A DNA stretch of 41,106 nucleotides from Spirochaetota bacterium (GTDB lineage Bacteria > Spirochaetota > GWE2-31-10 > MWDO01): positions 1 through 41,106 of the forward strand of contig DAONLM010000001.1 in the NCBI GenBank assembly GCA_035406685.1, given 5' to 3'. Below the pieces are notes generated by a model. It was not told where the DNA came from and did no database searches. It worked only from the letters and a program-made list of their open reading frames with translations. Both the position numbers and the translations under genes were made by a program. Shown here piece by piece: positions 1-41,106 of the stretch (position 1 is the stretch's first letter; each line of letters begins with the position of its first letter).

Positions 1-437
1 AGAATATTTCTCTATCAAAATTGATCTGTTATGTATTGCAAAAGTTTTCTGATAGGATCAAAAAAAGATACTGTTTCGGACATGAAGATGGAAATTTTTA
101 CGAAAGAATAGATGCAGATGACTCTATTCATTTTTATTTGCCAAAGGAAGATTATAGGTTTTTAAAGAAAATTCATGCTGACTTGAATTTTTTTAGCATG
201 GCAAAATTGTTGAGAGCAATTCTTGAGATATTCATTGAGGAATATGAGAGAATAGGAATGCTTGGATTTGAGAAGAAATGCAGTCTTGTGACATTGAGGT
301 TATGGGTGAAATTGACAGGGGTAAAGAGGTGGTGGAAGAGTAGAGAATTGTCCCACTTTAAAGGGAATTTCACCCCATTTTATAAAGCAATCTACAACGA
401 TTGCTATCAAGTAATAGGCTTTGAGACCTATTATTGA
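1..437 (+). CDS. Tandem ribbon-helix-helix-like small protein, family copy A (N-terminus runs off the window start)
   Basis: The frame stays open back to base 3. The upstream residues ..NISLSKLICYVLQ.. align to LSLSKLVVYILQ of copy D. About three quarters of residues match 30739..31278 by eye. It ends CYQVIGFETYY* like copies D and E. Confidence 0.8.
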   Translation, partial: NISLSKLICYVLQKFSDRIKKRYCFGHEDGNFYERIDADDSIHFYLPKEDYRFLKKIHADLNFFSMAKLLRAILEIFIEEYERIGMLGFEKKCSLVTLRLWVKLTGVKRWWKSRELSHFKGNFTPFYKAIYNDCYQVIGFETYY

Positions 438-532
438 CGGAATTTATTTTAAATTCTACTTGAAAAATAAATAACACTATTACAATCTTTTCTCAAACGA
501 AATTAATGATAGGATAAATCTATCTTTTTATC

Positions 533-555
533 TGCCTAAAAATAAAATCGCATCC
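533..555. repeat. Right terminal inverted repeat (IR-R) of cassette copy A
   Basis: TGCCTAAAAATAAAATCGCATCC is the reverse complement of the left-end repeat GGATG-ATTTTATTTTTAGGCA seen at 6005..6026. The same end motif follows copies B, D and E. Confidence 0.7.
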
Positions 556-750: not shown

Positions 751-3591
751 ATGAGGATATTAGAGAAAATATTTGGTTCTCAGAACGAGAGATATTTAAA
801 AAAGATTGCCCCATTAGTTGATAAAATAAATAAATTTGAAGCAAGTATAAAACATTTGTCGGATAATCAGTTAAGAGAAAAAACATTGGAATTTAAAAAG
901 AGATTAAAAAATGGGGAGACATTAGATGATCTATTGCCAGAGGCATTTGCCTGTGTTAGAGAGGCAGCATGGCGAACCTTAGGTCAGAGGCATTATGATG
1001 TTCAGATGATAGGTGCTATTGCATTACATCAAGGTAAGATTGCAGAAATGAAAACTGGTGAGGGTAAAACTCTTGCTGCTACACCGGCTATATACCTTAA
1101 TGCTCTTACCGGTAAAGGAGTTCATGTTGTAACTGTTAACGATTATCTTGCAAAAAGAGATGCAGAGTGGATGGGACCTATTTATAAGATGCTTGGTCTT
1201 ACAGTAGGGGTAATTGTGAGTGATATGGAAAATGATGAGAGAAGAGAAAACTACGCAAGAGATATTACTTATGGAACAAATAATGAATTTGGATTTGATT
1301 ATTTAAGAGATAATATGGTTTTTGATAAGGCATATAAGGTTCAGAGAGGTTTTCATTATTGTATTGTGGATGAGGTTGATTCAGTCTTAATAGACGAGGC
1401 AAGAACTCCTTTGATCATATCAGGGGCAGCAGAGAACGATGTTAGACATATTATAAATGCCAAAAAGTTGGTTCCATTTTTTAAAGAATGTGAAAAAAAC
1501 CCGGATGGTAGATATCCAGATGAGGCTGATCCATTTAATCCTCAAAAACCAGTAGGGGATTTTAAGATTGATGAAAAGTCTAAAAATATTACATTTACAG
1601 ACGATGGGATGAATAAGGCTGAAAAATTATTGAAAGAGAGAAACATAATAAGAGGATCTCTTTATGACCAGGAAAATTTTGAATATATTCATTATCTTAC
1701 TCAGGCTTTAAGGGCTCATTATCTTTTTCATAATGATGTTGATTACATTGTAAAGGATAATGAGGTTTTGATAATAGATGAACATACTGGAAGAATATTG
1801 CCGGGGAGAAGATATTCTGATGGTCTTCATCAGGCAATAGAGGCAAAAGAGAATATTACTGTTCAGAGAAGATCTAAGACTTATGCATCAATTACATTTC
1901 AGAACTTTTTTAGAATGTATGAGAAACTTGCCGGTATGACTGGAACAGCAGATACAGAGGCAGCGGAGTTTAAGAATATTTATAATCTTGATGTTGTAGT
2001 TATTCCTACAAATGTACCAGTTATAAGAATCGATCATTCCGATAGAGTATATTATAATTTTAAGGAAAAGGCAAATGCCATACTCGAAGAGGTTAAAAGA
2101 GTTCATAAAAAAGGCCAGCCAATTTTGATTGGGACAATCAGTGTTGAAAAATCTGAGATTTTTAGTAATATGCTTAAAAAGGCAAATATAAGACATAATG
2201 TCCTCAATGCTAAAAATCATGCAAGAGAGGCAGAGATAATTGCTGAGGCTGGTAGAGTTGGCGCTGTTACAATAGCGACAAATATGGCCGGTAGAGGAAC
2301 TGATATTAAATTGGGTGGAGAGAGAAGATATGATGAAATGTTTGAAGAGATTTTACAGATGGATGAGATAAGTGAAGGGGATAAGGCTATTTTACTTGAT
2401 TTTAAAGAATTTATTGATAAGATGAAACTTGATGAGGCTGAAAAACTCATAGAAAAACTGGATCCAGTTGCAAAAAGAGAGGCAAAGTCAATATTGAATT
2501 CTGCTTATGAATGGAAAGAGGAGAATAAAAGAGTAAAAGAACTTGGTGGACTTTTTGTATTAGGAACAGAAAGGCATGAGGCAAGAAGAATAGACAATCA
2601 GTTGAGAGGTAGATCTGGAAGACAGGGTGATCCTGGCGAGAGTAGATTTTATATATCACTTGAAGATGATTTGATGAGACTGTTTGGTGGTGAAAGAATC
2701 CAGAAGATGATGGCTGGGTTTGGGATGACTGGTGGAGAACCGATAGAACATCCATGGATTACTGGAACAATTGAAAAGGCACAAAAAAGAGTAGAAACAA
2801 GAAACTTTGAGATAAGAAAGCATTTACTCGAATATGATGATGTTTTAAATAATCAGAGAAAGTTTATATATGAAAGAAGAGATGAGATTCTTGAGGATGA
2901 AAATATAATAAAAAGAGTTTTGACAACAACAGAGGAGATACTGGAAGATATAATTGATGATTATACTGAAAACTTTAAGAGGAAAGGTGAACAGGCAATT
3001 GTTGATTTAATAAAAAGTATTAAAGAGACATTTTTTGTAGATATTACAAATATCGTTAAGAATCATAAATCTGATCCGGTTATTTTAAAAGATGAGATTT
3101 TTAATATTTTGAAAAAAGAACTTGAAGAAAAAGATAGAATACTTGGTCATAAAGATCTAAATGAAAGATTAAGAGGTCTATATCTCTATTTGATTGATAA
3201 ATACTGGCAGGAGCATCTTGAGAATATGGAGCAGTTAAGAGAGGCCGTATATTTAAGAGCATATTCTCAAAAAAATCCTTTAATCGAATATAAAATAGAA
3301 GGCTCAAATATGTTTGAGGATTTGATAGGGAAGATAAAAGAGAATGTTGTTTTTCAGATATTTAAAATAAAGATAGAGACTGTAACGATGTTTAATGCTC
3401 CTACTACCTCATTGACAACATCTCATGATAGTATTAGTGGTTTTGCTTTTGGCGGAGATAATAGGCAGAAATCTCAAGAAGTGGTTGATATGAAGATATC
3501 TACGACAATTGTCAATAAGGCAAAGATAGGCAGAAATGAGCCATGTCCTTGTGGAAGTGGGAAGAAATATAAACATTGCTGTGGTAGATAG
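751..3591 (+). CDS. secA: Preprotein translocase ATPase SecA
   Basis: 946 aa. It carries MKTGEGKTLAATPAIYLNAL (Walker A), VTVNDYLAKRDAEWMG, TERHEARRIDNQLRGRSGRQGDPG and the C-terminal zinc finger CPCGSGKKYKHCCG. Confidence 0.97.
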   Translation: MRILEKIFGSQNERYLKKIAPLVDKINKFEASIKHLSDNQLREKTLEFKKRLKNGETLDDLLPEAFACVREAAWRTLGQRHYDVQMIGAIALHQGKIAEMKTGEGKTLAATPAIYLNALTGKGVHVVTVNDYLAKRDAEWMGPIYKMLGLTVGVIVSDMENDERRENYARDITYGTNNEFGFDYLRDNMVFDKAYKVQRGFHYCIVDEVDSVLIDEARTPLIISGAAENDVRHIINAKKLVPFFKECEKNPDGRYPDEADPFNPQKPVGDFKIDEKSKNITFTDDGMNKAEKLLKERNIIRGSLYDQENFEYIHYLTQALRAHYLFHNDVDYIVKDNEVLIIDEHTGRILPGRRYSDGLHQAIEAKENITVQRRSKTYASITFQNFFRMYEKLAGMTGTADTEAAEFKNIYNLDVVVIPTNVPVIRIDHSDRVYYNFKEKANAILEEVKRVHKKGQPILIGTISVEKSEIFSNMLKKANIRHNVLNAKNHAREAEIIAEAGRVGAVTIATNMAGRGTDIKLGGERRYDEMFEEILQMDEISEGDKAILLDFKEFIDKMKLDEAEKLIEKLDPVAKREAKSILNSAYEWKEENKRVKELGGLFVLGTERHEARRIDNQLRGRSGRQGDPGESRFYISLEDDLMRLFGGERIQKMMAGFGMTGGEPIEHPWITGTIEKAQKRVETRNFEIRKHLLEYDDVLNNQRKFIYERRDEILEDENIIKRVLTTTEEILEDIIDDYTENFKRKGEQAIVDLIKSIKETFFVDITNIVKNHKSDPVILKDEIFNILKKELEEKDRILGHKDLNERLRGLYLYLIDKYWQEHLENMEQLREAVYLRAYSQKNPLIEYKIEGSNMFEDLIGKIKENVVFQIFKIKIETVTMFNAPTTSLTTSHDSISGFAFGGDNRQKSQEVVDMKISTTIVNKAKIGRNEPCPCGSGKKYKHCCGR

Positions 3592-4368: not shown

Positions 4369-5859
4369 CTATTTTTTGAAAGATTCGTAGAGTTCTAATA
4401 CTAGTTTATTAAAATAAGAAAAATCGTTTAAGCCTAAATCCATTAATATATTTTTATTTATTGTATTATAGATTTGCTCAATACTATTTTCTTTGTGTGA
4501 TATTATATTTGCTACATAGATAATACTTACAAATTTTTTGTAGTCTTTGTTACTCTGCCATGGTTTATGATGAAATTCAATAGCATCTATTAATTTTTCT
4601 GGGAAATTCCATTTTTGAGCAAGAAGTGCTCCTACCATTGAATGATTATAACCAGATGTTATCTCTTCTATAATTCTTACTGGGATACCTTTTTCGTGAC
4701 ACAAAAGATTGATTTTATTAATTAGCGAAGGATTTAAACCGAGTAGTACTATTTTCCCAAAGTCATGAAGTATTCCGCCGATATAGCAATCTTCTAATTC
4801 TTCTTTAAGGCCTAATTTTTTTGCAATGTGAAATGCATTAAAAGCAACCATATACGAATGATTCAGTATATCTTTCATTTTATTTATATCATATCTTTGT
4901 GATAAGATTTTATTTGTTTGATATGAGTATATGATATTCCTAAGACCTTTTAATCCTATTAATTTAATAGCCTCAAGTAAAGACGAGATTTTTCTTGGTA
5001 GCATAAATAGAGCTGAGTTTGAAAATTTTAATATATCCCCTGTTAAAGTTGGATCCTTAGAGATAATTAAAGAGATATCTTTTATATCTACATCTGGATT
5101 ATTTAATTTTTCTTGAAGTTTTATAATATTTTCTGGAAAATGTGGTATATCATTTATCTCTTTTATTATTAGCTCATTTACAATTGTCGTATGCTCTTCT
5201 GTTATTAAAGAGATAGGTATACTTATAGAAGTGATTGTGCTAGAATCATCAAAATTTAAAGAATAAGCATCAGCATCGAGTCCTAACTTTTTCAACATAA
5301 GAATTGAAATTATTATGCCAAGGCCAGCGCCTTCTTCACTCTGAAATATAGTAGAGAATGCTTCATCTATTGTTTTAAATTCTTTTGCTTTATCTTTTTT
5401 TTCATTTATAATGTGTATTTCATGTTCAAGTATTTTCACATTATTTTTTACAGAAATAATAAATCTATCATCTTTTATTACTAATAAAGTATGAATATGA
5501 TATCCCATCTCTTTTTGTAATTTTGAATATTCTTCTAAATTTGACATTATATTATTTTTAAAGTTTTTAATTCCTCTATTGTATTCTTCAATATTATTAT
5601 AATTTATGTTATTTTTCTCAAAATATATTCTTTTAACATTTGCTTTTATTGCATTCATCAACATCTCTTTGTAACAATATGATATAAAATCAAAAATATT
5701 ATCTTTTCCTATTGAATCTAAGAATACATTTATTATACTATTCATTTTTTGGATTTGAGTAATAGAAAGAGATGTAGTATCAATAACTAATTCATTTCCA
5801 TTGTTTATACAATTTTTAATTATCTCTTCTGTTACTTCATCTATACCATAAATATTCAT
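4369..5859 (-). CDS. HDOD-domain signalling protein with an N-terminal histidine-kinase-like ATPase module
   Basis: The C-terminal half carries HDOD-type motifs (LISKDPTLTGDILKFSNSALF, EAIKLIGL, GGILHDFGKIVL). The N-terminal half has NAIKAN and EEGAGLGI, resembling the N and G boxes of GHKL ATPases. Confidence 0.6.
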   Translation of the reverse strand: MNIYGIDEVTEEIIKNCINNGNELVIDTTSLSITQIQKMNSIINVFLDSIGKDNIFDFISYCYKEMLMNAIKANVKRIYFEKNNINYNNIEEYNRGIKNFKNNIMSNLEEYSKLQKEMGYHIHTLLVIKDDRFIISVKNNVKILEHEIHIINEKKDKAKEFKTIDEAFSTIFQSEEGAGLGIIISILMLKKLGLDADAYSLNFDDSSTITSISIPISLITEEHTTIVNELIIKEINDIPHFPENIIKLQEKLNNPDVDIKDISLIISKDPTLTGDILKFSNSALFMLPRKISSLLEAIKLIGLKGLRNIIYSYQTNKILSQRYDINKMKDILNHSYMVAFNAFHIAKKLGLKEELEDCYIGGILHDFGKIVLLGLNPSLINKINLLCHEKGIPVRIIEEITSGYNHSMVGALLAQKWNFPEKLIDAIEFHHKPWQSNKDYKKFVSIIYVANIISHKENSIEQIYNTINKNILMDLGLNDFSYFNKLVLELYESFKK

Positions 5860-5930: not shown

Positions 5931-6008
5931 GAAAATAGTTTATAAGATTTTGAGAAAAATAAGATTTTTTATTTAGAATTAAATATTATTTAATTTATAT
6001 TCAAGGAT

Positions 6009-6720
6009 GATTTTATTTTTAGGCAATTTTTTTATTTTTTTTCTTAAATTTTGTAAAGGATTTTCTCAAAAATTTTGTGATTAATATATAGAAATATTTT
6101 TTAACAGGAGGTATAAGTTATGCAAGAGTTTGACTTTGTAGTTAATGAAGATCTTTTTAAAAAAATTAAAAATTTAAAGGAGAAGAGAGGAGGATATCTT
6201 TCTCTTATTGTAAGAGATATAATCTTATTGATGCTTCCAGTATTAAAAAAGAAGCATCTTTTTGAAAAAAGACGGGATAAAGATTATAGATTTATAAATG
6301 CCACTCACAGGATTAGAATCTATATTCCAGAAGAGATTTATAATGAATTAAAACTGGTGCATGATCAGTTAAATTCATTCAGTATGGCAATTCTTGTTAG
6401 AGAATTGCTGGAAGTATATTTTGCTGGAATTGAAATAGAAGGTGAAGAGGAGTTTATAAAAAGTATACAAAAATTAGAAAGAGAGATTGAAAATTTAAAA
6501 GCAAGTAAGGCTGTGGTAGTGAAGATTGGTTCCCAAGATATCCCATGCTCGATAGACACTAACGACTATTTTTTACTCAAATTTAGCTCAAAATTTTGCC
6601 TGAAAGAGATAAAATTTTTATAAAAGTTAAAATTTACCCAACATTTTTATATTCTTTCAACTTTCTCTTTAACTATACATTAGACTAAGTTTGCTCTTTT
6701 TGTTGTCTAAAAATAAAATC
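6009..6720 (+). mobile_element. Complete IR-bounded RHH cassette, copy B (candidate non-autonomous mobile or modular regulatory unit)
   Basis: IR-L GATTTTATTTTTAGGCAA (6009..6026) and IR-R TTGTCTAAAAATAAAATC (6703..6720) match at 17/18 positions as inverted repeats. Between them lie a conserved 97-nt 5' module, one ORF and a 3' tail. No transposase is present. Confidence 0.55.
6120..6623 (+). CDS. Tandem ribbon-helix-helix-like small protein, family copy B (divergent subfamily)
   Basis: AGGAGG lies 7 nt upstream of the ATG. It has two beta-helix-helix modules (FDFVV-NEDLFKKIKNLKEKRG-YLSLIVRDIILLML and IRIYI-PEEIYNELKLVHDQLN-SFSMAILVRELLEVYF). It is colinear with copies A, C, D and E. Confidence 0.75.
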   Translation: MQEFDFVVNEDLFKKIKNLKEKRGGYLSLIVRDIILLMLPVLKKKHLFEKRRDKDYRFINATHRIRIYIPEEIYNELKLVHDQLNSFSMAILVRELLEVYFAGIEIEGEEEFIKSIQKLEREIENLKASKAVVVKIGSQDIPCSIDTNDYFLLKFSSKFCLKEIKFL

Positions 6721-6753
6721 TCTCCTTAACTTTTTTTTCTTATGTAATATTTT

Positions 6754-21267: not shown

Positions 21268-21522
21268 TATTTTTTACCTCGTTTAGAAAAATTGTATTTT
21301 ATTATAGAATAGAATACAATAAATATTTATATTTGTCTATAAAAATAATTATGCTTTAAAAGATATTTTTAGATTTTATTAGGAGAATTGTCCTATTTTT
21401 TTGAAAAAAAAGACAAAAATTCATAATCGCTGAAAATGATTAAAATAATATTACTTCTTATTTTTCCTAACAAGAATGCTTGAAATAATTTCAGTAAGAA
21501 TACTGGAATAACTTTATTTTAA

Positions 21523-22144
21523 GCGATTTTAAAAAAGTGCCAAAAAAAATGAAAAAAAATTTTAATTTTTGTAAAGGATTTTTTCACTTTTTTTGTGATT
21601 AATAAGTGAGGAGGAAAATATGAAAAAAGAATTTAATTTTATGATTGACAACAAACTTGAAAAAAATATTCTCTCTTATTGTAAAAAGAGAAAAATTAGT
21701 TACAACAGGGCAATAAATGAGATTATAGAGTTAATGTTGCCAGTAATAAAGGAGATACACTATTTTTCAGAGGAGAATGATTGCAAATATCAAAGAATAG
21801 ATGCTGTAAAAAAAATTCATTTGTATATGCCTAAAGAAATTTATAGAGAATTAAAGCTTGTTCATAGTAATCTTAATTTTTATAGCATTGCGATTCTTGT
21901 TAGATTTATGCTTGATATTTATTTTGAGTGGCTTGAAGAGACAAATGATAATGAGACAAAAATAAAAGAGAGGGTAAATGAGATAATAACTAAAATTGAT
22001 GATAGATTGAAAAAAAGTAATTACGAGGTAATAAAAAATGAGTTGAAAGTAAGGATAGGACAATTGTCTTGCAATCCATTTCCTCATACTCTTAAAATTC
22101 ATTATAATTTTGATTTCTCAATTCACAAGATAGAATTTTTATGA
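21523..22144 (+). repeat. Degenerate RHH cassette, copy C (diverged 5' module, no recognisable IR-R)
   Basis: The 5' region GCGATTTTAAAAAAGTGCCAA...TTTTTGTAAAGGATTTTTTCAC-TTTTTTGTGATTAATA is homologous to the B/D 5' module but diverged. The stop codon is followed within 19 nt by the -35 box of the next promoter. Confidence 0.5.
21620..22144 (+). CDS. Tandem ribbon-helix-helix-like small protein, family copy C
   Basis: GAGGAGG lies upstream of the ATG. It has FNFMI-DNKLEKNILSYCKKRK-ISYNRAINEIIELML and IHLYM-PKEIYRELKLVHSNLN-FYSIAILVRFMLDIYF. It is colinear with copy B, with a similar C-terminus (..HKIEFL versus ..KEIKFL). Confidence 0.75.
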   Translation: MKKEFNFMIDNKLEKNILSYCKKRKISYNRAINEIIELMLPVIKEIHYFSEENDCKYQRIDAVKKIHLYMPKEIYRELKLVHSNLNFYSIAILVRFMLDIYFEWLEETNDNETKIKERVNEIITKIDDRLKKSNYEVIKNELKVRIGQLSCNPFPHTLKIHYNFDFSIHKIEFL

Positions 22145-22223: not shown

Positions 22224-22538
22224 ATGCCAAGATGTAAAAAGAAAAGATGTTGTAGATTTTTAGATTCTGAAAAGATTTTTAAACCAGCGGGAATTCCTTT
22301 TAATCAACTTGAAGTAATCGAAATATCCCTTGATGAATTTGAGGCAATTAGGTTATGTGATTATGATAAATTAAGTCAAATTGGTGCTGCTGGGAGAATG
22401 AATATTTCAAGAGGAACTATTCAACGGCTTTTAGAATCTGGAAGATACAAAATAGTAGATGCTTTATTGAATAATAAAATTTTAAAAATAAATAACATAG
22501 AACTAAATCAAAGTATAAATCAAAATGAAATCAAATAA
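22224..22538 (+). CDS. DUF134 (UPF0251) family predicted DNA-binding protein
   Basis: MPRCKKKR.CR......FKPAGIP...LE.I.ISLDEFEAIRL.D...LSQ..AA..MNISRGT.QR.L...R.K...AL is a characteristic DUF134 N-terminus followed by a helix-turn-helix. Confidence 0.75.
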   Translation: MPRCKKKRCCRFLDSEKIFKPAGIPFNQLEVIEISLDEFEAIRLCDYDKLSQIGAAGRMNISRGTIQRLLESGRYKIVDALLNNKILKINNIELNQSINQNEIK

Positions 22539-23509: not shown

Positions 23510-26500
23510 CTATTGCTCTCTCTTAACAATTGCCAATTTCTCTGGTGCTGTTCCAGTAGCATAGTTACTATCCCATGTTAATGCACCAGTACCAGTATCA
23601 ATCTTGAATAATTGAACATTATTACTCGTCCCTTTTACTGTAACATAAAGATAGTTTGCCCATGTTGCAGGATGAACAGCAACGGCATAAGGGGGTTGTG
23701 TTCCATTAGTGTTTACTGAACTTATTAGTGTTAATGCTCCAGTTGTTTGGTTTGTACTTGCATAGTGAATTGCATTATTTGCTGGTCTTGCTATATAGAT
23801 ATAATGTGTTGTCCCATAGTAAATATCAGAAATTGATGCATTATTTACAATACGATTTGAAATCCCTGTTGTTGCACCAGTATTATCATAAGAGTATGAT
23901 CTAACTCTGTTTCCACTTGTCATTGAAGCAAAGATATAATTTAGATTTTTATGAGTCTTAACAAATGAAGGTTGATTAAACCCTGGATTTAAAGTATTAT
24001 TGAATGTAACACTTGATCCATCAGCAGAAACATTCATAATTGATATTTTATTATTTCCAAAGCAAGGAATATAAATAAACTTATTTGCTTGAGCATTTGC
24101 AAACTCAAAATCCCTTGGTCCTGTATTCACTGACCCAGTTGAAACTGGAGCACCTAGAACTCCATTGGTTATTGAAAGTGTATTGATGCTATTTCCACTA
24201 TTACTCCCAACATATAAATAATTACCGTTTGGATTAACAGTAACACCCCATGCTCCCGTAATATCTTGAGAGCCTAAACTTGTTAGATTCCCATCCTTTT
24301 CTACGCTAAATGATTCTACTTTATTACCTGTATTCTCTGTTACAAATATATAGTTACCACTCGGATGAACAGCAATACTCCTTGGTCCATTCCCAGCAAG
24401 ACCAGATTTTGTACCAATATTGGTAAGTGTTCCATCATCATTAATTCTAAACATACTGATATTATTACTACCATTATTTGGCACATACAGATAATATCGA
24501 TATAAAATATAATCATTAGAGGCAACATTGGAATCCGTCCAATTTGTTTTAAAAGCCCTTGCTTTTATTGTGCAGGATGTTGTTAATTCAAATGGGGATG
24601 TGTAGAGAGTGGAAGAAGAAGTTGGTTCTGAACCATCAACTGTATAACGAATAGTAGCACCAGTAGTCGTTGTTGACATAGATATCATAGTGGTCTGATC
24701 ATAAGTTCCAGATGCTGGCAAAATAGTAGGAGTTGCAACAGGTCCATTAACAACATATGTCGCACTATTGGTATTAGAATCATCCCAGTTTGTCTTAAAT
24801 GCCTTAGCCTTAATTGTCATAGTGGTAAAGAGTGGAATATTTATAGGACCTGAATATACTGGCGAACTAATAGTTGGCTCACTACCATCAGTTGTATATC
24901 TAATCGTTGCCCCTGATGTAGATGTACTTATTGTTACATCAATGCTTTCAGGATATTCTCCTTCAGTATGGCTAAAAGTAGGAGTTGCAACTTTACCAGT
25001 TACAATATAAGTTTTTGTAATCACATTTGAATCTGACCAGTTTTCTTTTATAGCAATTGCTTTAATTGTCAGAGTTGTGTCATAATCAATGTGTATCGGT
25101 GAAGTATAAAGAGGAGAGGAATAATCCGGAGTAGAATCATCGGTTGTATATCTAATTTCTGCTCCAGTTGTTTCAGTAGATAAAACTATATCCTGCGGTG
25201 TTGTAAAAATTCCACTGTCTAAATTAAAGTTAGGATCTTTTGGTTTTAAAACAAAATTAGCTTGAGAAATTATAGAATTAGCCCATCCATCTTTTGTAGC
25301 AATTGCCTTTATAGTAGTATTTCTATTTATTGTTATGGGTGTAGTATAAATTAACGAACTACCCGGCACGGGATCAGTCCCATCCAGTGTATAATAAATA
25401 GTTACTCCAGATGGAGAACTAACATTAATTGAGACATTTTGAATTTCATTATAAATCCCAGATTCAGGTTCAAAAGTAGGAGCTGCACATGTGCCAGTGA
25501 TTATATATGTTGCCGTTGTAGTATCAGAATCATCCCAGTTTGTCTTAAATGCCTTAGCCTTAATTGTCATTGAAGAAGAAACGGATATTGGTCCTGTATA
25601 TTCTGTTGAAGTTTCATCTGGTTCACTACCGTTTGTAGTATACCTAATAATAGAATCAGGTGTAAGACAGCTTATTACCACTTCTTGTGGTGTTATATAA
25701 GTTCCTTCTGGTGGTAAAAATTGTGGAGAAGTTACCTTACCTGTTATTACATAAGAGAGAGTTAAAATATCTGAATTTTCCCAGTTATCTTTAACTGCTA
25801 TTGCCTTTATTAGATTGGTGGTATTGGTATCAAGATGAATAGGAGTGGTATAAATATTAGAATTAATATCTGGTGTTGTATCATCTGTAGTATAATATAT
25901 TGTTGCCCCTTCTGTCTCGCAATCCAATGTTACATCCTGTTCATTCTTATAAAGCCCTTCTGGTAATAAAGAGAAAGGACTCTTTACTTTTAAAGTATAT
26001 GTTATTGTAGAAACAGAAGAATCATTGTACCCCTCTTTAATAGTAATTGCCTTAATTGTAGTAGTTTTTGTTATATTGATTGGTGAATCATATAACAAAG
26101 ACGAAGTGGATGGCTCCGAACCATCAAGAGTATAATATATTTTTGCGGAAGAAGTAAGTGTTGATAAACTTACTGTTATCTCTGTATAATAGACTCCTTC
26201 TGTTAAAGAAAAAGTTGGAGAGGCACATGTCTCTTTAATTGTAAAACTTCTTGTTATTACATTAGAAGGTGTAAAACCAGTTTTATATGCTCTTGCCTTT
26301 ATAGTCATCCCATTGTTAACAGGAATAGGATATGAATACAAAGAAGAGTTTTCTGTTGGATCACTTCCATTTGTTGTATAACGAATAGTTGCCCCTTCTG
26401 TTTTTGAATTAATCGTAACAGTGATTGGAGAATCAAAAATCCCCCCATCTGGCAAGAATTCAGGATCAGAAACTTTAAGTAAACTAGTAGTTGTTGTGGT

Positions 26501-26623
26501 GCCAGTAGTTCCGCCTCCTTTTTTAGAACTATTACCACCAGTAATTGCATCCTGACTATAATTTATTAATTCTAAAAGATAGATAAAGATAATAAAAATA
26601 AATAATTTTTTTGAGAAAGACAT
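23510..26623 (-). CDS. Large secreted surface protein: eight chitobiase/hexosaminidase-C-like (Fn3-associated) repeats plus a C-terminal lactonase-type beta-propeller
   Basis: It has a signal peptide and eight ~80-aa repeats of the form (I/Y)(R/Y)YT(T/L)(D/N)G(S/T)(E/D)P...S..Y..PI....T.IKA.A.K..W..S. The C-terminal ~350 aa have YLYV.N.GSN.IS.F and GNGPRSIAVHP.GNY.FV.. blades. Confidence 0.8.
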   Translation of the reverse strand: MSFSKKLFIFIIFIYLLELINYSQDAITGGNSSKKGGGTTGTTTTTSLLKVSDPEFLPDGGIFDSPITVTINSKTEGATIRYTTNGSDPTENSSLYSYPIPVNNGMTIKARAYKTGFTPSNVITRSFTIKETCASPTFSLTEGVYYTEITVSLSTLTSSAKIYYTLDGSEPSTSSLLYDSPINITKTTTIKAITIKEGYNDSSVSTITYTLKVKSPFSLLPEGLYKNEQDVTLDCETEGATIYYTTDDTTPDINSNIYTTPIHLDTNTTNLIKAIAVKDNWENSDILTLSYVITGKVTSPQFLPPEGTYITPQEVVISCLTPDSIIRYTTNGSEPDETSTEYTGPISVSSSMTIKAKAFKTNWDDSDTTTATYIITGTCAAPTFEPESGIYNEIQNVSINVSSPSGVTIYYTLDGTDPVPGSSLIYTTPITINRNTTIKAIATKDGWANSIISQANFVLKPKDPNFNLDSGIFTTPQDIVLSTETTGAEIRYTTDDSTPDYSSPLYTSPIHIDYDTTLTIKAIAIKENWSDSNVITKTYIVTGKVATPTFSHTEGEYPESIDVTISTSTSGATIRYTTDGSEPTISSPVYSGPINIPLFTTMTIKAKAFKTNWDDSNTNSATYVVNGPVATPTILPASGTYDQTTMISMSTTTTGATIRYTVDGSEPTSSSTLYTSPFELTTSCTIKARAFKTNWTDSNVASNDYILYRYYLYVPNNGSNNISMFRINDDGTLTNIGTKSGLAGNGPRSIAVHPSGNYIFVTENTGNKVESFSVEKDGNLTSLGSQDITGAWGVTVNPNGNYLYVGSNSGNSINTLSITNGVLGAPVSTGSVNTGPRDFEFANAQANKFIYIPCFGNNKISIMNVSADGSSVTFNNTLNPGFNQPSFVKTHKNLNYIFASMTSGNRVRSYSYDNTGATTGISNRIVNNASISDIYYGTTHYIYIARPANNAIHYASTNQTTGALTLISSVNTNGTQPPYAVAVHPATWANYLYVTVKGTSNNVQLFKIDTGTGALTWDSNYATGTAPEKLAIVKREQ
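24776..24820. repeat. 45-nt exact intragenic repeat (partner at 25526..25570)
   Basis: AGAATCATCCCAGTTTGTCTTAAATGCCTTAGCCTTAATTGTCAT occurs identically 750 nt apart. Both copies encode MTIKAKAFKTNWDDS. Confidence 0.9.
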
Positions 26624-30556: not shown

Positions 30557-30585
30557 CTTATACTAAAAATTTTAATATTTGTCAA
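30557..30585 (-). promoter_or_regulatory. Sigma70 promoter for murA (minus strand)
   Basis: On the minus strand: TTGACA (30585..30580), 17 nt, TATAAG (30562..30557). Confidence 0.5.
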
Positions 30586-30598
30586 AACTTAATAGAGT

Positions 30599-31412
30599 AA
30601 ACAGAAAGGAAGGCGATTTTATTTTGAGGCAATTTTTTTTATTTTTTTCTTAAATTTTGTAAAGGATTTTCTTAAAAATTTTGTGATTAATATATAGAAA
30701 TATTTTTTTATAAACTTAAGGAGTAAGGAGGATTTTTTATGGATATTAATAAAATTTTAGAAAACTACAATGCTGAACATGAGTTTCACTTTGTAGTAAA
30801 ATCAGAAATGAAAAAAAGGCTTGTAAAATTAGCAGAAAAATTAAATTTATCTTTATCAAAACTTGTTGTGTATATTCTTCAATTGTTTTGTAACAGGATA
30901 AAAAAGATATACTGCTTTGGTGTTGAGGATGGAAATACTTATGAAAGAATTGATGCTACTGATAAAATTAGGGTATATCTCTCAAAAGAGGATTATAGAT
31001 TCTTAAAAAAGATTCATGCGGATCTTAATTTTTTCAGCATGGCAGTCCTCTTGAGGAGAATTGTCGCACTTTTTTTGGAAGAATATGAGAAAATGGGGCT
31101 TTTAGGTGTGGAGAAGAAATGTAGTCTTGTGACATTGAGGTTATGGTTGAAAATAACAAAGATAAAGAGGTGGAAAAAGAATAAAGAATTGTCGCACTTT
31201 GAAGGCAATACCATGCCCTTCTATAAGGCGATCTATAATAATTGCTATCAAGTAATAGGTTTTGAAACCTATTATTGACCATAATTTTATTTAGAAATGA
31301 ATAGATCTATTATAACTTTTTCTCAAACAAAGTTAACATGAGGATAAATGTATTTTTTTAATTGCCTAAAAATAAATTAGTGCGCAAACAGAAAGAAAAG
31401 CAATTTTATTTT
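30599..31412 (+). mobile_element. Complete RHH cassette, copy D, with IRs and flanking 27-nt direct repeats
   Basis: The direct repeats are AAACAGAAAGGAAGGCGATTTTATTTT (30599..30625) and AAACAGAAAGAAAAGCAATTTTATTTT (31386..31412), differing by 3 G-to-A changes. IR-L is GATTTTATTTTGAGGCAA (30615..30632). IR-R is TTGCCTAAAAATAAATT (31362..31378). Confidence 0.55.
30739..31278 (+). CDS. Tandem ribbon-helix-helix-like small protein, family copy D (full length, 179 aa)
   Basis: AAGGAGG lies upstream of the ATG. It has two beta-helix-helix modules (FHFVV-KSEMKKRLVKLAEKLN-LSLSKLVVYILQLF and IRVYL-SKEDYRFLKKIHADLN-FFSMAVLLRRIVALF). It is close to copies A and E. Confidence 0.8.
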   Translation: MDINKILENYNAEHEFHFVVKSEMKKRLVKLAEKLNLSLSKLVVYILQLFCNRIKKIYCFGVEDGNTYERIDATDKIRVYLSKEDYRFLKKIHADLNFFSMAVLLRRIVALFLEEYEKMGLLGVEKKCSLVTLRLWLKITKIKRWKKNKELSHFEGNTMPFYKAIYNNCYQVIGFETYY

Positions 31413-31430: not shown

Positions 31431-31459
31431 TTGACAATTTAGATTTTTTAGTATATATT
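31431..31459 (+). promoter_or_regulatory. Sigma70 promoter directly abutting the START-domain gene (possibly a leaderless mRNA)
   Basis: TTGACA (31431..31436), 17 nt, TATATT (31454..31459). The annotated ATG is at 31468, only 9 nt after the -10 box, and no Shine-Dalgarno sequence is visible. Confidence 0.45.
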
Positions 31460-40555: not shown

Positions 40556-40662
40556 TAACTTATCTTTCCCATAGATCTTTTTTAATAATATATTTAAAAT
40601 TTTATTATTTTTTTGAGAAATAGAAAATGGTTTTTGATTAAATTTATTCAAAAAAAAAAAGC

Positions 40663-40681
40663 GCAATTTTATTTTTAGTCA
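40663..40681. repeat. IR-R of cassette copy E (element on the minus strand)
   Basis: GCAATTTTATTTTTAGTCA is the reverse complement of TGACTAAAAATAAAATTGC. It matches the ends found after copies A, B and D. Confidence 0.65.
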
Positions 40682-40777
40682 GTTAAAAAAAATAGAATTA
40701 TCCTAAGGGTTAATTTTATTTGAGAAATAATTGTAATAGTGTTATTTATTTTTTGGTAGAATTTAAAATAAATTTTT

Positions 40778-41106
40778 TCAATAATAGGTCTCAAATCCTA
40801 TTACCTGATAGCAATCGTTGTAGATTGCCTTGTAAAAGGGCGTGGTATTCCCTTCAAACTGGGATAATTCTCTGCTCTTATTCCACTTTTTTATCTTTGT
40901 TAGTCTCAAAAATAACTTTAATGTTACTATACTACACTTCATCTCAACCCCGGTAATGCCTAATTTCTCGTATTCTTCAAGGAAGAGTAGGATAATTCTC
41001 CTCAGTAAAACACCCATGCTGAAAAAATTAAGATCAGCATGGATCTTTTTTAAAAAACGATAGTCCTGTTTGGAAACATATATATGAATTCTCGCATCTC
41101 CATCTA
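40778..41106 (-). CDS. Tandem ribbon-helix-helix-like small protein, family copy E (N-terminus runs off the window end)
   Basis: The minus-strand frame stays open beyond the listed Met. Upstream codons read ..DGDARIHIYVSKQDYRFLKKIHADLNFFSMGVLLRRI.., colinear with copies A and D. It ends CYQVIGFETYY*. Confidence 0.8.
   Translation of the reverse strand, partial: DGDARIHIYVSKQDYRFLKKIHADLNFFSMGVLLRRIILLFLEEYEKLGITGVEMKCSIVTLKLFLRLTKIKKWNKSRELSQFEGNTTPFYKAIYNDCYQVIGFETYY

Follow-up and report, generated by a model that had tools for sequence, protein, structure and literature searches.

A 41,106-nucleotide window on contig DAONLM010000001.1 of a Spirochaetota bacterium (assembly GCA_035406685.1; window G+C ~28%) carries five copies, A to E, of a gene family whose non-coding 5′ module is far better conserved than the open reading frames (ORFs) behind it. 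The explanation we prefer, with a probability of roughly 0.6, is that the module is the promoter- and operator-bearing left arm of a dispersed, probably mobile cassette, which resembles a miniature inverted-repeat transposable element (MITE) and encodes a tandem ribbon–helix–helix (RHH) protein; selection for protein binding, together with recombination, would keep it uniform. At the centre of the module lies a two-box core, TTGTAAAGGATTTT-N9-TTTGTGATTAATA, consisting of box 1, a spacer and box 2.

Copies B and D illustrate the disparity. Their modules (B 6009..6102, D 30615..30708) are almost identical over 94 nt, from GATTTT to GAAATATTTTTT at the end of a shared T6 run, and differ by a T>G substitution at position 12, a C>T substitution in the spacer (CTC versus CTT) and T7-A-T8 versus T8-A-T7, i.e., one A/T swap. 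The proteins, by comparison, are 28% identical globally and 36–37% identical across the N-terminal ~100 residues, and their C-termini are unlike. The initial annotation, which had paired a near-identical module with distant proteins of different C-terminal subfamilies, is thus borne out, and the module ends that it gave for B and D were only a few bases out. Two oligomers that it had named as kept by B, C and D, the 15-mer TTTGTAAAGGATTTT and the 14-mer TTTTGTGATTAATA, each have exactly three matches in the window, all of them in front of these copies. It had counted three or four family members in the window; there are five, of which A and E are truncated by the window ends. At 95.7% identity, the B and D modules are the most similar of 143 cross-subtype pairs, without being an outlier (mean 84.5%; several pairs at 93–95%).

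The same pattern extends across the family. The 64 related loci that we fetched (~500 kb) hold 74 family ORFs, 58 of them complete and 51 non-redundant, and the core precedes nearly all of them. The core matches 65 times in these contigs: 58 matches precede family ORFs, five lie at contig ends and two are fused to unrelated genes. For the 58 family ORFs the distance from core to ATG is 64–82 nt, with one at 110 nt, and the end of box 2 lies 28–46 nt from the ATG in nearly all copies. In 1224 pairwise comparisons of 50 non-redundant units, identity over the 27 box positions is ~98% in all protein-identity bins from 20 to 100% (Spearman rho −0.005). Coding-sequence identity is 46% in cross-type comparisons, and the boxes differ by 0.02 per site. 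The family ORFs are under purifying selection (dN/dS ~0.1), with synonymous sites saturated between subtypes (dS 1.5–2.5). The case for special constraint would weaken, as the initial annotation had reasoned, if the module diverged in proportion to the ORF; a rho near zero, with saturated dS set against near-invariant boxes, shows that it does not.

Variation in and around the core is restricted to spacer positions and to the flanks. At any one position of box 1, no more than three of the 50 non-redundant copies deviate. The spacer is fixed in length at 9 nt, and three of its nine positions vary freely (deviations at positions 1, 3 and 5 in 7, 28 and 13 of 50 copies). The TTTTGT motif of box 1 recurs in box 2, 24 nt later. 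The boxes are kept in family copies from another assembly, GCA_020049655.1, and in a nearly identical pair of metagenome contigs (L011/L078). At loci L077, L078 and L080, TTTGTAAAG ... TTTGT-n-(A)T-TA-rich is kept at the same spacing and other positions have drifted. The core is also intact where the surrounding arm has been interrupted: copy C has acquired a nested repeat, and locus L063 an insertion that separates core and ribosome-binding site (RBS). The latter insertion (~4560-4620) is ~45 nt long and contains a small hairpin (CCGACTTAAAATCGG).

In two places core and RBS stand before a gene of another kind: a lipoprotein gene at locus L006 (7118-7792) and a ComM-like ATPase gene at locus L033 (1987-3507). 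Homology starts at box 1 in both fusions, so that everything from box 1 to the RBS acts as a unit sufficient in itself. To that limited extent the fusions support the idea, raised in the initial annotation, of an independently mobile promoter unit; otherwise the signs of mobility concern the cassette as a whole. At L033 two cores are placed back to back ~300 nt apart, at 3549-3584 (minus strand) and ~3900 (plus strand); one precedes a family ORF and the other a ComM/YifB-like gene.

The module forms the left arm of a unit of 710–780 bp (~0.75 kb), in which a terminal inverted repeat (TIR) of ~23 nt is followed by a T-rich tract, the two-box core, the RBS, the tandem-RHH gene, a conserved right end and an inverted TIR. 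The left inverted repeat (IR-L), initially described as 17 nt long, extends to ~23 nt, with the consensus GGGTGCGATTTTATTTTTAGGCA, and recurs inverted (IR-R) 80–97 nt past the stop codon. In the ~500 kb, 62 of 67 TIR matches flank family genes, on the strand of the gene at its 5′ end and on the opposite strand at its 3′ end, and the remainder lie at locus ends. The distance from IR-L to the core is 40–44 nt, and the T-rich tract differs in length among copies. In the window the family has the following features.

6003..6025, plus strand: IR-L of unit B, aaggat followed by GATTTTATTTTTAGGCA, which fits the TIR consensus
6026..6050, plus strand: T-rich tract of unit B, between IR-L and core
6051..6064, plus strand: box 1 of unit B, TTGTAAAGGATTTT
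6065..6073, plus strand: 9-nt spacer of unit B, CTCAAAAAT (CTTAAAAAT in unit D)
6074..6086, plus strand: box 2 of unit B, TTTGTGATTAATA, near-invariant
6087..6119, plus strand: post-core segment of unit B (TATAGAAATATTTTTT variant), with the RBS AGGAGG at 6106-6111
6120..6623, plus strand: ORF B, 167 aa, single-chain tandem RHH protein as modelled with AlphaFold2
6624..6726, plus strand: 3′ segment and IR-R of unit B, with the IR-R core TGTCTAAAAATAAAATC at 6704-6720, then tctcct
30599..30608: left direct repeat of unit D, AAACAGAAAG, 10 bp, resembling a target-site duplication (TSD)
30609..30738, plus strand: left arm of unit D, with IR-L 30609-30631, T-rich tract, box 1 30657-30670, spacer, box 2 30680-30692 and RBS
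30739..31278, plus strand: ORF D, 179 aa, tandem RHH protein with a D-type C-terminus
31279..31385, plus strand: 3′ segment and IR-R of unit D, with TGCCTAAAAATAAATTA at 31363-31379, then gtgcgc
31386..31395: right direct repeat of unit D, AAACAGAAAG
21413-21563: nested ~150-nt repeat, interrupting the original left arm of copy C
21568..21604, plus strand: core of copy C, comprising box 1, the 9-nt spacer TTCACTTTT and box 2
21620..22144, plus strand: ORF C, 174 aa, C-type tandem RHH protein
1..555, plus strand: copy A, with an ORF (3..437) cut by the window start, a 3′ segment and IR-R at 533-555
40659..41106, minus strand: copy E, with an ORF (41104..40778) cut by the window end and IR-R at 40659-40681

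Copies A and E are each ~75% identical to D. Copy C lacks an intact IR-R downstream of its ORF and is therefore regarded as a decayed unit. A diverged version of the module had been assigned to it at 21523..21605; the 37-nt core within that interval is indeed homologous, but 21523-21563 is the right end of the other repeat, and we rejected its interpretation as a diverged IR-L. This second repeat, ~150 nt long, is itself MITE-like. It has subterminal inverted repeats (AATCGCTGAAAA / TTTTCAGCGATT) and an internal hairpin, ATTCCAG-N8-CTGGAAT, and occurs at window 21413-21563, L058 3615-3770, L001 4790-4935 and L019 1-103; it is nested in the left arms of RHH units (copy C, L058, L036) or adjoins an IR-R (L001).

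The protein encoded by the cassette appears to be a single-chain tandem RHH protein, a conclusion supported by the predicted fold and by structural matches that place it near TraY and AvtR. The AlphaFold2 model of protein B, built on a 36-sequence alignment (mean predicted confidence, pLDDT, 83.5), contains two consecutive beta-alpha-alpha motifs at residues 2-48 (E2-8/H10-23/H27-48) and 63-107 (E63-69/H71-84/H89-107), with pLDDT of at least 90 in these blocks, followed by a long helix and a small C-terminal beta unit. The top Foldseek matches in the PDB, weak but consistent (E 0.08–0.7, 7–18% identity), are chains of the F-plasmid relaxosome protein TraY, AvtR, DndE, VirC2 and single-chain Arc, in line with the RHH assignment guessed initially. 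Pfam RHH models match both halves of the protein. One family member, P0103, passes the RHH_3 cut-off (28.3 versus 21.6 bits), whereas the window proteins fall below it at 15–16 bits, and Pfam, NCBIfam and PHROGs yield only sub-threshold RHH/Arc-like matches for them. The only match in a PDB sequence search, also weak, is 2KEL, deposited as 'Uncharacterized protein 56B', an RHH regulator from the archaeal virus SIRV1. Among 1.84 billion representatives, a profile search returned 245 related clusters. Ten distant ones gave no significant match when scanned against Pfam; of ten that were looked up, none is on a contig longer than 6.4 kb, and the four with a source name are all called 'hypothetical protein'. 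In F TraY, according to the relaxosome study (bioRxiv 10.1101/2024.12.19.629322), a single monomer contains an entire RHH dimer fold, and a train of three such monomers occupies two direct sites and one inverted site.

Of the options offered in the initial annotation for the module, a protein-binding platform under constraint is the best supported: the boxes are near-invariant, the spacer is fixed at 9 nt, the position before the RBS is fixed, the boxes are shared with another assembly and their conservation is independent of ORF divergence. In accordance with the general attributes of a promoter or operator, the core holds a constant place upstream of RBS and ATG and is portable to two other genes. 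We propose that proteins recognise the core as a promoter/operator from which every family member would be expressed. Box 2, together with the TA-rich hexamer downstream of it, would occupy the −10 place, ~30–45 nt before the ATG, with box 1 at approximately −35 to −46. The reader might be RNA polymerase with a non-sigma-70 specificity factor or an activator; alternatively, the single-chain RHH proteins may themselves occupy the TTTTGT direct repeat, for which the binding of TraY to trains of sites is a plausible model. All copies would be read by the same trans-acting proteins, and the ORFs would drift under ordinary protein-level constraint; shared readers would subject the boxes of all copies, and not in one genome only, to purifying selection. 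Swapping of left ends between copies would add to the homogeneity.

Several observations weigh against this proposal. With TTGACA-16..18-TATAAT as the criterion for the two hexamers (at least 9 of 12 matches, with A2 and T6 in the −10 hexamer), there is no sigma-70-type −35/−10 pair inside 6040-6105, so that the assignment as a promoter draws only on position and conservation. TAATAT at 6082-6087 has no −35 partner at 16–18 nt, and the TGTG would have to be one base further downstream to form an extended −10. The T-rich tract, the spacer and the TIR are ~80–87% identical, and the arms on average ~85% identical across subtypes, despite saturated synonymous sites, which indicates that selection on the two boxes is not the whole story. 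The module is absent from locus L079, the most distant and GC-richer relative that we examined. Finally, ~560 kb contain no transposase or autonomous element with matching TIRs, and no empty site was found via murA orthologues.

Because the core has no sigma-70 fit, although adjacent genes carry textbook TTGACA-17-TATAAT promoters, we read it as a promoter that would need another factor or an activator and that would overlap an operator. The consensuses of sigma-28, sigma-54, ECF (extracytoplasmic-function sigma) and Bacteroidetes-type promoters misfit in spacing or key bases; that of Bacillus sigma-H, AGGAWWW-N12-GAAT, is partly like AAAGGATTT-N12-TGTGATTAA and serves as a lead only. A DUF134 gene directly after copy C (window 22224-22538) has weak, sub-threshold matches to sigma-70 region 4, and its product is a possible candidate for a factor acting on the module. 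As for the excess conservation of the arm, recombination of left arms with one another, or selection for transposition acting on the arm in its entirety, probably contributes. Pre-core and post-core variants, the latter of three kinds, are shuffled among B- and D-type ORFs, which makes a contribution of recombination among left ends probable.

The structure of the units points to mobility. They have TIRs at both ends, flanking TSD-like repeats and dispersed copies without a transposase domain, which are the hallmarks of MITEs. Outside the TIRs, unit D is bracketed by the perfect 10-bp repeat AAACAGAAAG, and loci L061 and L064 have perfect 8-mers. Repeats with at least 7 of 8 matches flank 7 of 17 units, in contrast to 10 of 119 (8%) shifted controls from the same loci (permutation test, p<1/5000); a duplication length of 8–10 bp is only approximate, since many repeats are decayed or of low complexity. 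At least 17 distinct family locus tags occur in one assembly, GCA_035361355.1 (PLE45_), and two further assemblies, with tags PK351_ and PLD75_, also have family members. Since neither an empty site nor an autonomous partner was found, we infer mobility from these features. In a relative with 93% MurA identity (L065) no unit lies in the 300 nt upstream of murA, where the flank is not alignable and the contig then ends; relatives with 81% MurA identity have other synteny and no units. The suggestion of mobility in the initial annotation is supported for the whole inverted-repeat-bounded cassette and not for the module alone. Recent spread, as applied to the ORFs, is unsupported because dS is saturated.

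The family was found by protein search in metagenome-derived sequences only. All source names of family proteins that bear an organism read uncultured Spirochaetota, Spirochaetales or Spirochaetes metagenome-assembled genome (MAG), and the nearest database relatives of the window family proteins and of MurA are labelled MAG Spirochaetota bacterium. The neighbours of the units are unrelated housekeeping genes (secA, an HDOD-domain gene, murA, glutamine synthetase III, histidine kinases and a Mrp-type ATPase). An origin as a phage or plasmid fragment was rejected, as there are no relatives in IMG/VR or PLSDB. A toxin–antitoxin pair was likewise rejected: IR-R follows 80–97 nt after the stop codon, and the next gene is an unrelated housekeeping gene with its own promoter.

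Most units occupy intervals between divergently transcribed genes: the gene upstream runs divergently in 39 of 49 cases, and the gene downstream has the direction of the unit in 42 of 56. Within ~30–50 nt of either TIR, these neighbouring genes have canonical TTGACA-17-TATAAT promoters, for example at window 30557-30585 (minus strand) and 31431-31459 (plus strand). This placement suggests an insertion preference for promoter regions, or an effect of the units on their neighbours. We note two further loci. At L001-L003 (10737-14441), four tandem paralogues of ~280–305 aa without a Pfam match directly follow a D-type unit, the first with a hydrophobic, signal-peptide-like N-terminus. In the window, 23510-26623 (minus strand) encodes a 1037-aa protein with eight CHB_HEX_C_1/Fn3_assoc repeats and a lactonase-type beta-propeller.

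Both window ends (1-437 and 40778-41106) lie inside family ORFs in inverted orientation, and several independent assemblies of the same strain (L072-L075) break inside unit D. The units are thus assembly-breaking repeats, and copy numbers in MAGs are lower bounds. Some contigs that come from separate samples are 100% identical over a unit and one of its flanks and unrelated on the other side (L001/L002/L003 at ~4976; L013/L014; L015/L018/L020), with breakpoints at IR-R or inside the ORF. Such flank swaps reflect either recombination between units or chimeric assembly, two causes that are not separable here.

Among other explanations, constraint from transposition is a less probable candidate. 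The left and right arms would then form a cis-acting binding array for a transposase supplied in trans, possibly with assistance from the RHH protein, and because only copies with consensus ends would replicate, the ends would stay uniform while the internal ORFs diverge. The TIRs and TSD-like repeats fit this model, as does the conservation of both ends in B- and D-type units: the right arm CCTTAGGATAAnTCTATCTTTTTATCTGCCTAAAAATAAAATC is conserved in both, and an inverted TTAATTTTGT ~45 nt from the right terminus mirrors box 1, ~42 nt from the left terminus. The 85% whole-arm identity is above what two boxes alone would need, and the nearest structural analogues include TraY and VirC2, which are DNA-end/oriT accessory proteins. 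However, the core is better conserved than the TIRs. Many copies with a degenerate or missing IR-L or IR-R have an intact core, copy C and the two fusions to unrelated genes keep it without TIRs, and box 2 has no counterpart at the right end; that no transposase with matching TIRs was seen in ~560 kb counts against this explanation as well. A bolder reading, which we consider rather doubtful, is that the units are a new kind of small mobile element with the single-chain tandem RHH gene as its sole gene. The protein, a DNA-end-binding factor similar to TraY and VirC2, would occupy the subterminal TTTTGT repeats of the two arms and bring in a nuclease or transposase, either from the host or encoded in trans; with a preference for insertion between divergent promoters, the element would also place neighbouring housekeeping genes in a common RHH-controlled regulon.

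Concerted evolution without special function, in which gene conversion or unequal recombination homogenises the left arms and the B/D identity marks one recent tract, seems unlikely to us as the sole cause. The shuffled pre- and post-core variants speak for it, together with the mosaic contigs that share a unit, differ in one flank and have their breakpoints within units, and B and D are the most similar cross-type pair. But conversion would not skip a 9-nt spacer while fixing the flanking 14 and 13 nt, nor would it leave the adjoining ORFs, themselves under purifying selection, unhomogenised. Retention of the boxes in GCA_020049655.1 and in L011/L078 means that intragenomic conversion alone is insufficient, the core persists in the fusions to unrelated genes, and the flank swaps could be assembly chimeras.

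We regard it as improbable that the inverted repeats are site-specific recombination sites, of an invertible/shufflon-like or Xer/dif type, with the module as part of the crossover site. Inverted repeats do lie on both sides of each unit, synteny breaks exactly at the outer edge of IR-R in L001, L002 and L003, and the start of the TIR, GGTGCG, may resemble the XerC arm of E. coli dif. Yet no unit was seen in both orientations between shared flanks, recombinase genes are not a regular neighbour (in the window the units adjoin secA, the HDOD-domain gene, murA and similar genes), the flanking direct repeats point to staggered-cut transposition, and the best-conserved part is the core and not the inverted repeat.

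Least probable is a structured cis-acting RNA (a leader, riboswitch-like element or small RNA), a third option of the initial annotation: the module is highly conserved directly 5′ of the ORF, but it has no Rfam match at gathering score or E<=1, its sense-strand minimum-free-energy z-scores are close to zero (+1.5, −0.2, +0.1 and +0.7; mean −0.2 over 43 non-redundant leaders), the covariation check with RNAalifold gives zero consensus pairs, T-run indels and a 45-nt insertion are tolerated, and any plausible transcription start would fall downstream of most of the module. A small leader ORF was rejected too, since the ATG with which it starts in B, at 6007, is missing from D and its frame is disturbed by the T-run indels, which exclude a coding role for the module.

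If a protein-read promoter or operator is indeed what the module provides, the broader lesson is that a non-coding stretch better conserved than its gene can mark the shared control region of a dispersed family and not an RNA. The work on the cassette also defines an unannotated protein family, and a repeat unit that makes up ~1% of genes in an uncultured Spirochaetota lineage and disrupts metagenome assemblies. A non-sigma-70 promoter, or an operator of ~20 cross-talking RHH proteins, would make the cassette a compact, natural multi-copy module that is co-regulated and possibly mobile.

The cassette combines known kinds in a new form. Arc, Mnt, CopG and omega are RHH repressors that autoregulate single genes or operons through their own specific operators. 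Here, too, a small RHH gene directly follows a compact putative operator/promoter with short repeats, but a single near-identical site is common to the diverged paralogues, of which a genome has at least 17, and the units contain no toxin or partner gene. With TraY, AvtR and VirC2 the predicted proteins share two beta-alpha-alpha motifs in one chain, i.e., an RHH pseudo-dimer; they differ in lacking sequence-level family membership and a conjugative or viral context, and in an extra C-terminal helix and small beta unit that vary between subtypes. For the unit as a whole, the closest structural analogy is a MITE with promoter activity. MITEs and the Correia elements of Neisseria are small, dispersed intergenic sequences with TIRs and short direct repeats, without a transposase, and with promoter activity directed outward or inward on neighbouring genes. 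The RHH units are likewise dispersed, bounded by TIRs and direct repeats and transposase-less, but at 0.71–0.78 kb they exceed classical MITEs in size, their ORF is intact, under selection and diversified into subtypes, and their best-conserved part is the internal two-box site and not the TIR. The closest functional analogy is the erp (ospE/F-related) family of Borrelia burgdorferi, in which highly conserved 5′ DNA of paralogous genes contains a promoter and an operator bound by shared proteins, giving co-ordinated expression (PMC9112904). The two cases have no sequence relationship, and the erp genes encode surface lipoproteins on cp32 prophage plasmids, whereas the genes described here are chromosomal, encode DNA-binding RHH proteins and lie in units with TIRs and TSD-like repeats; for erp, the proteins that bind and the site of transcription initiation are established, and for the RHH units they are putative. 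What the two spirochaete families share is 5′ non-coding DNA, in erp called the 'upstream homology box', conserved in all copies in front of ORFs that differ.

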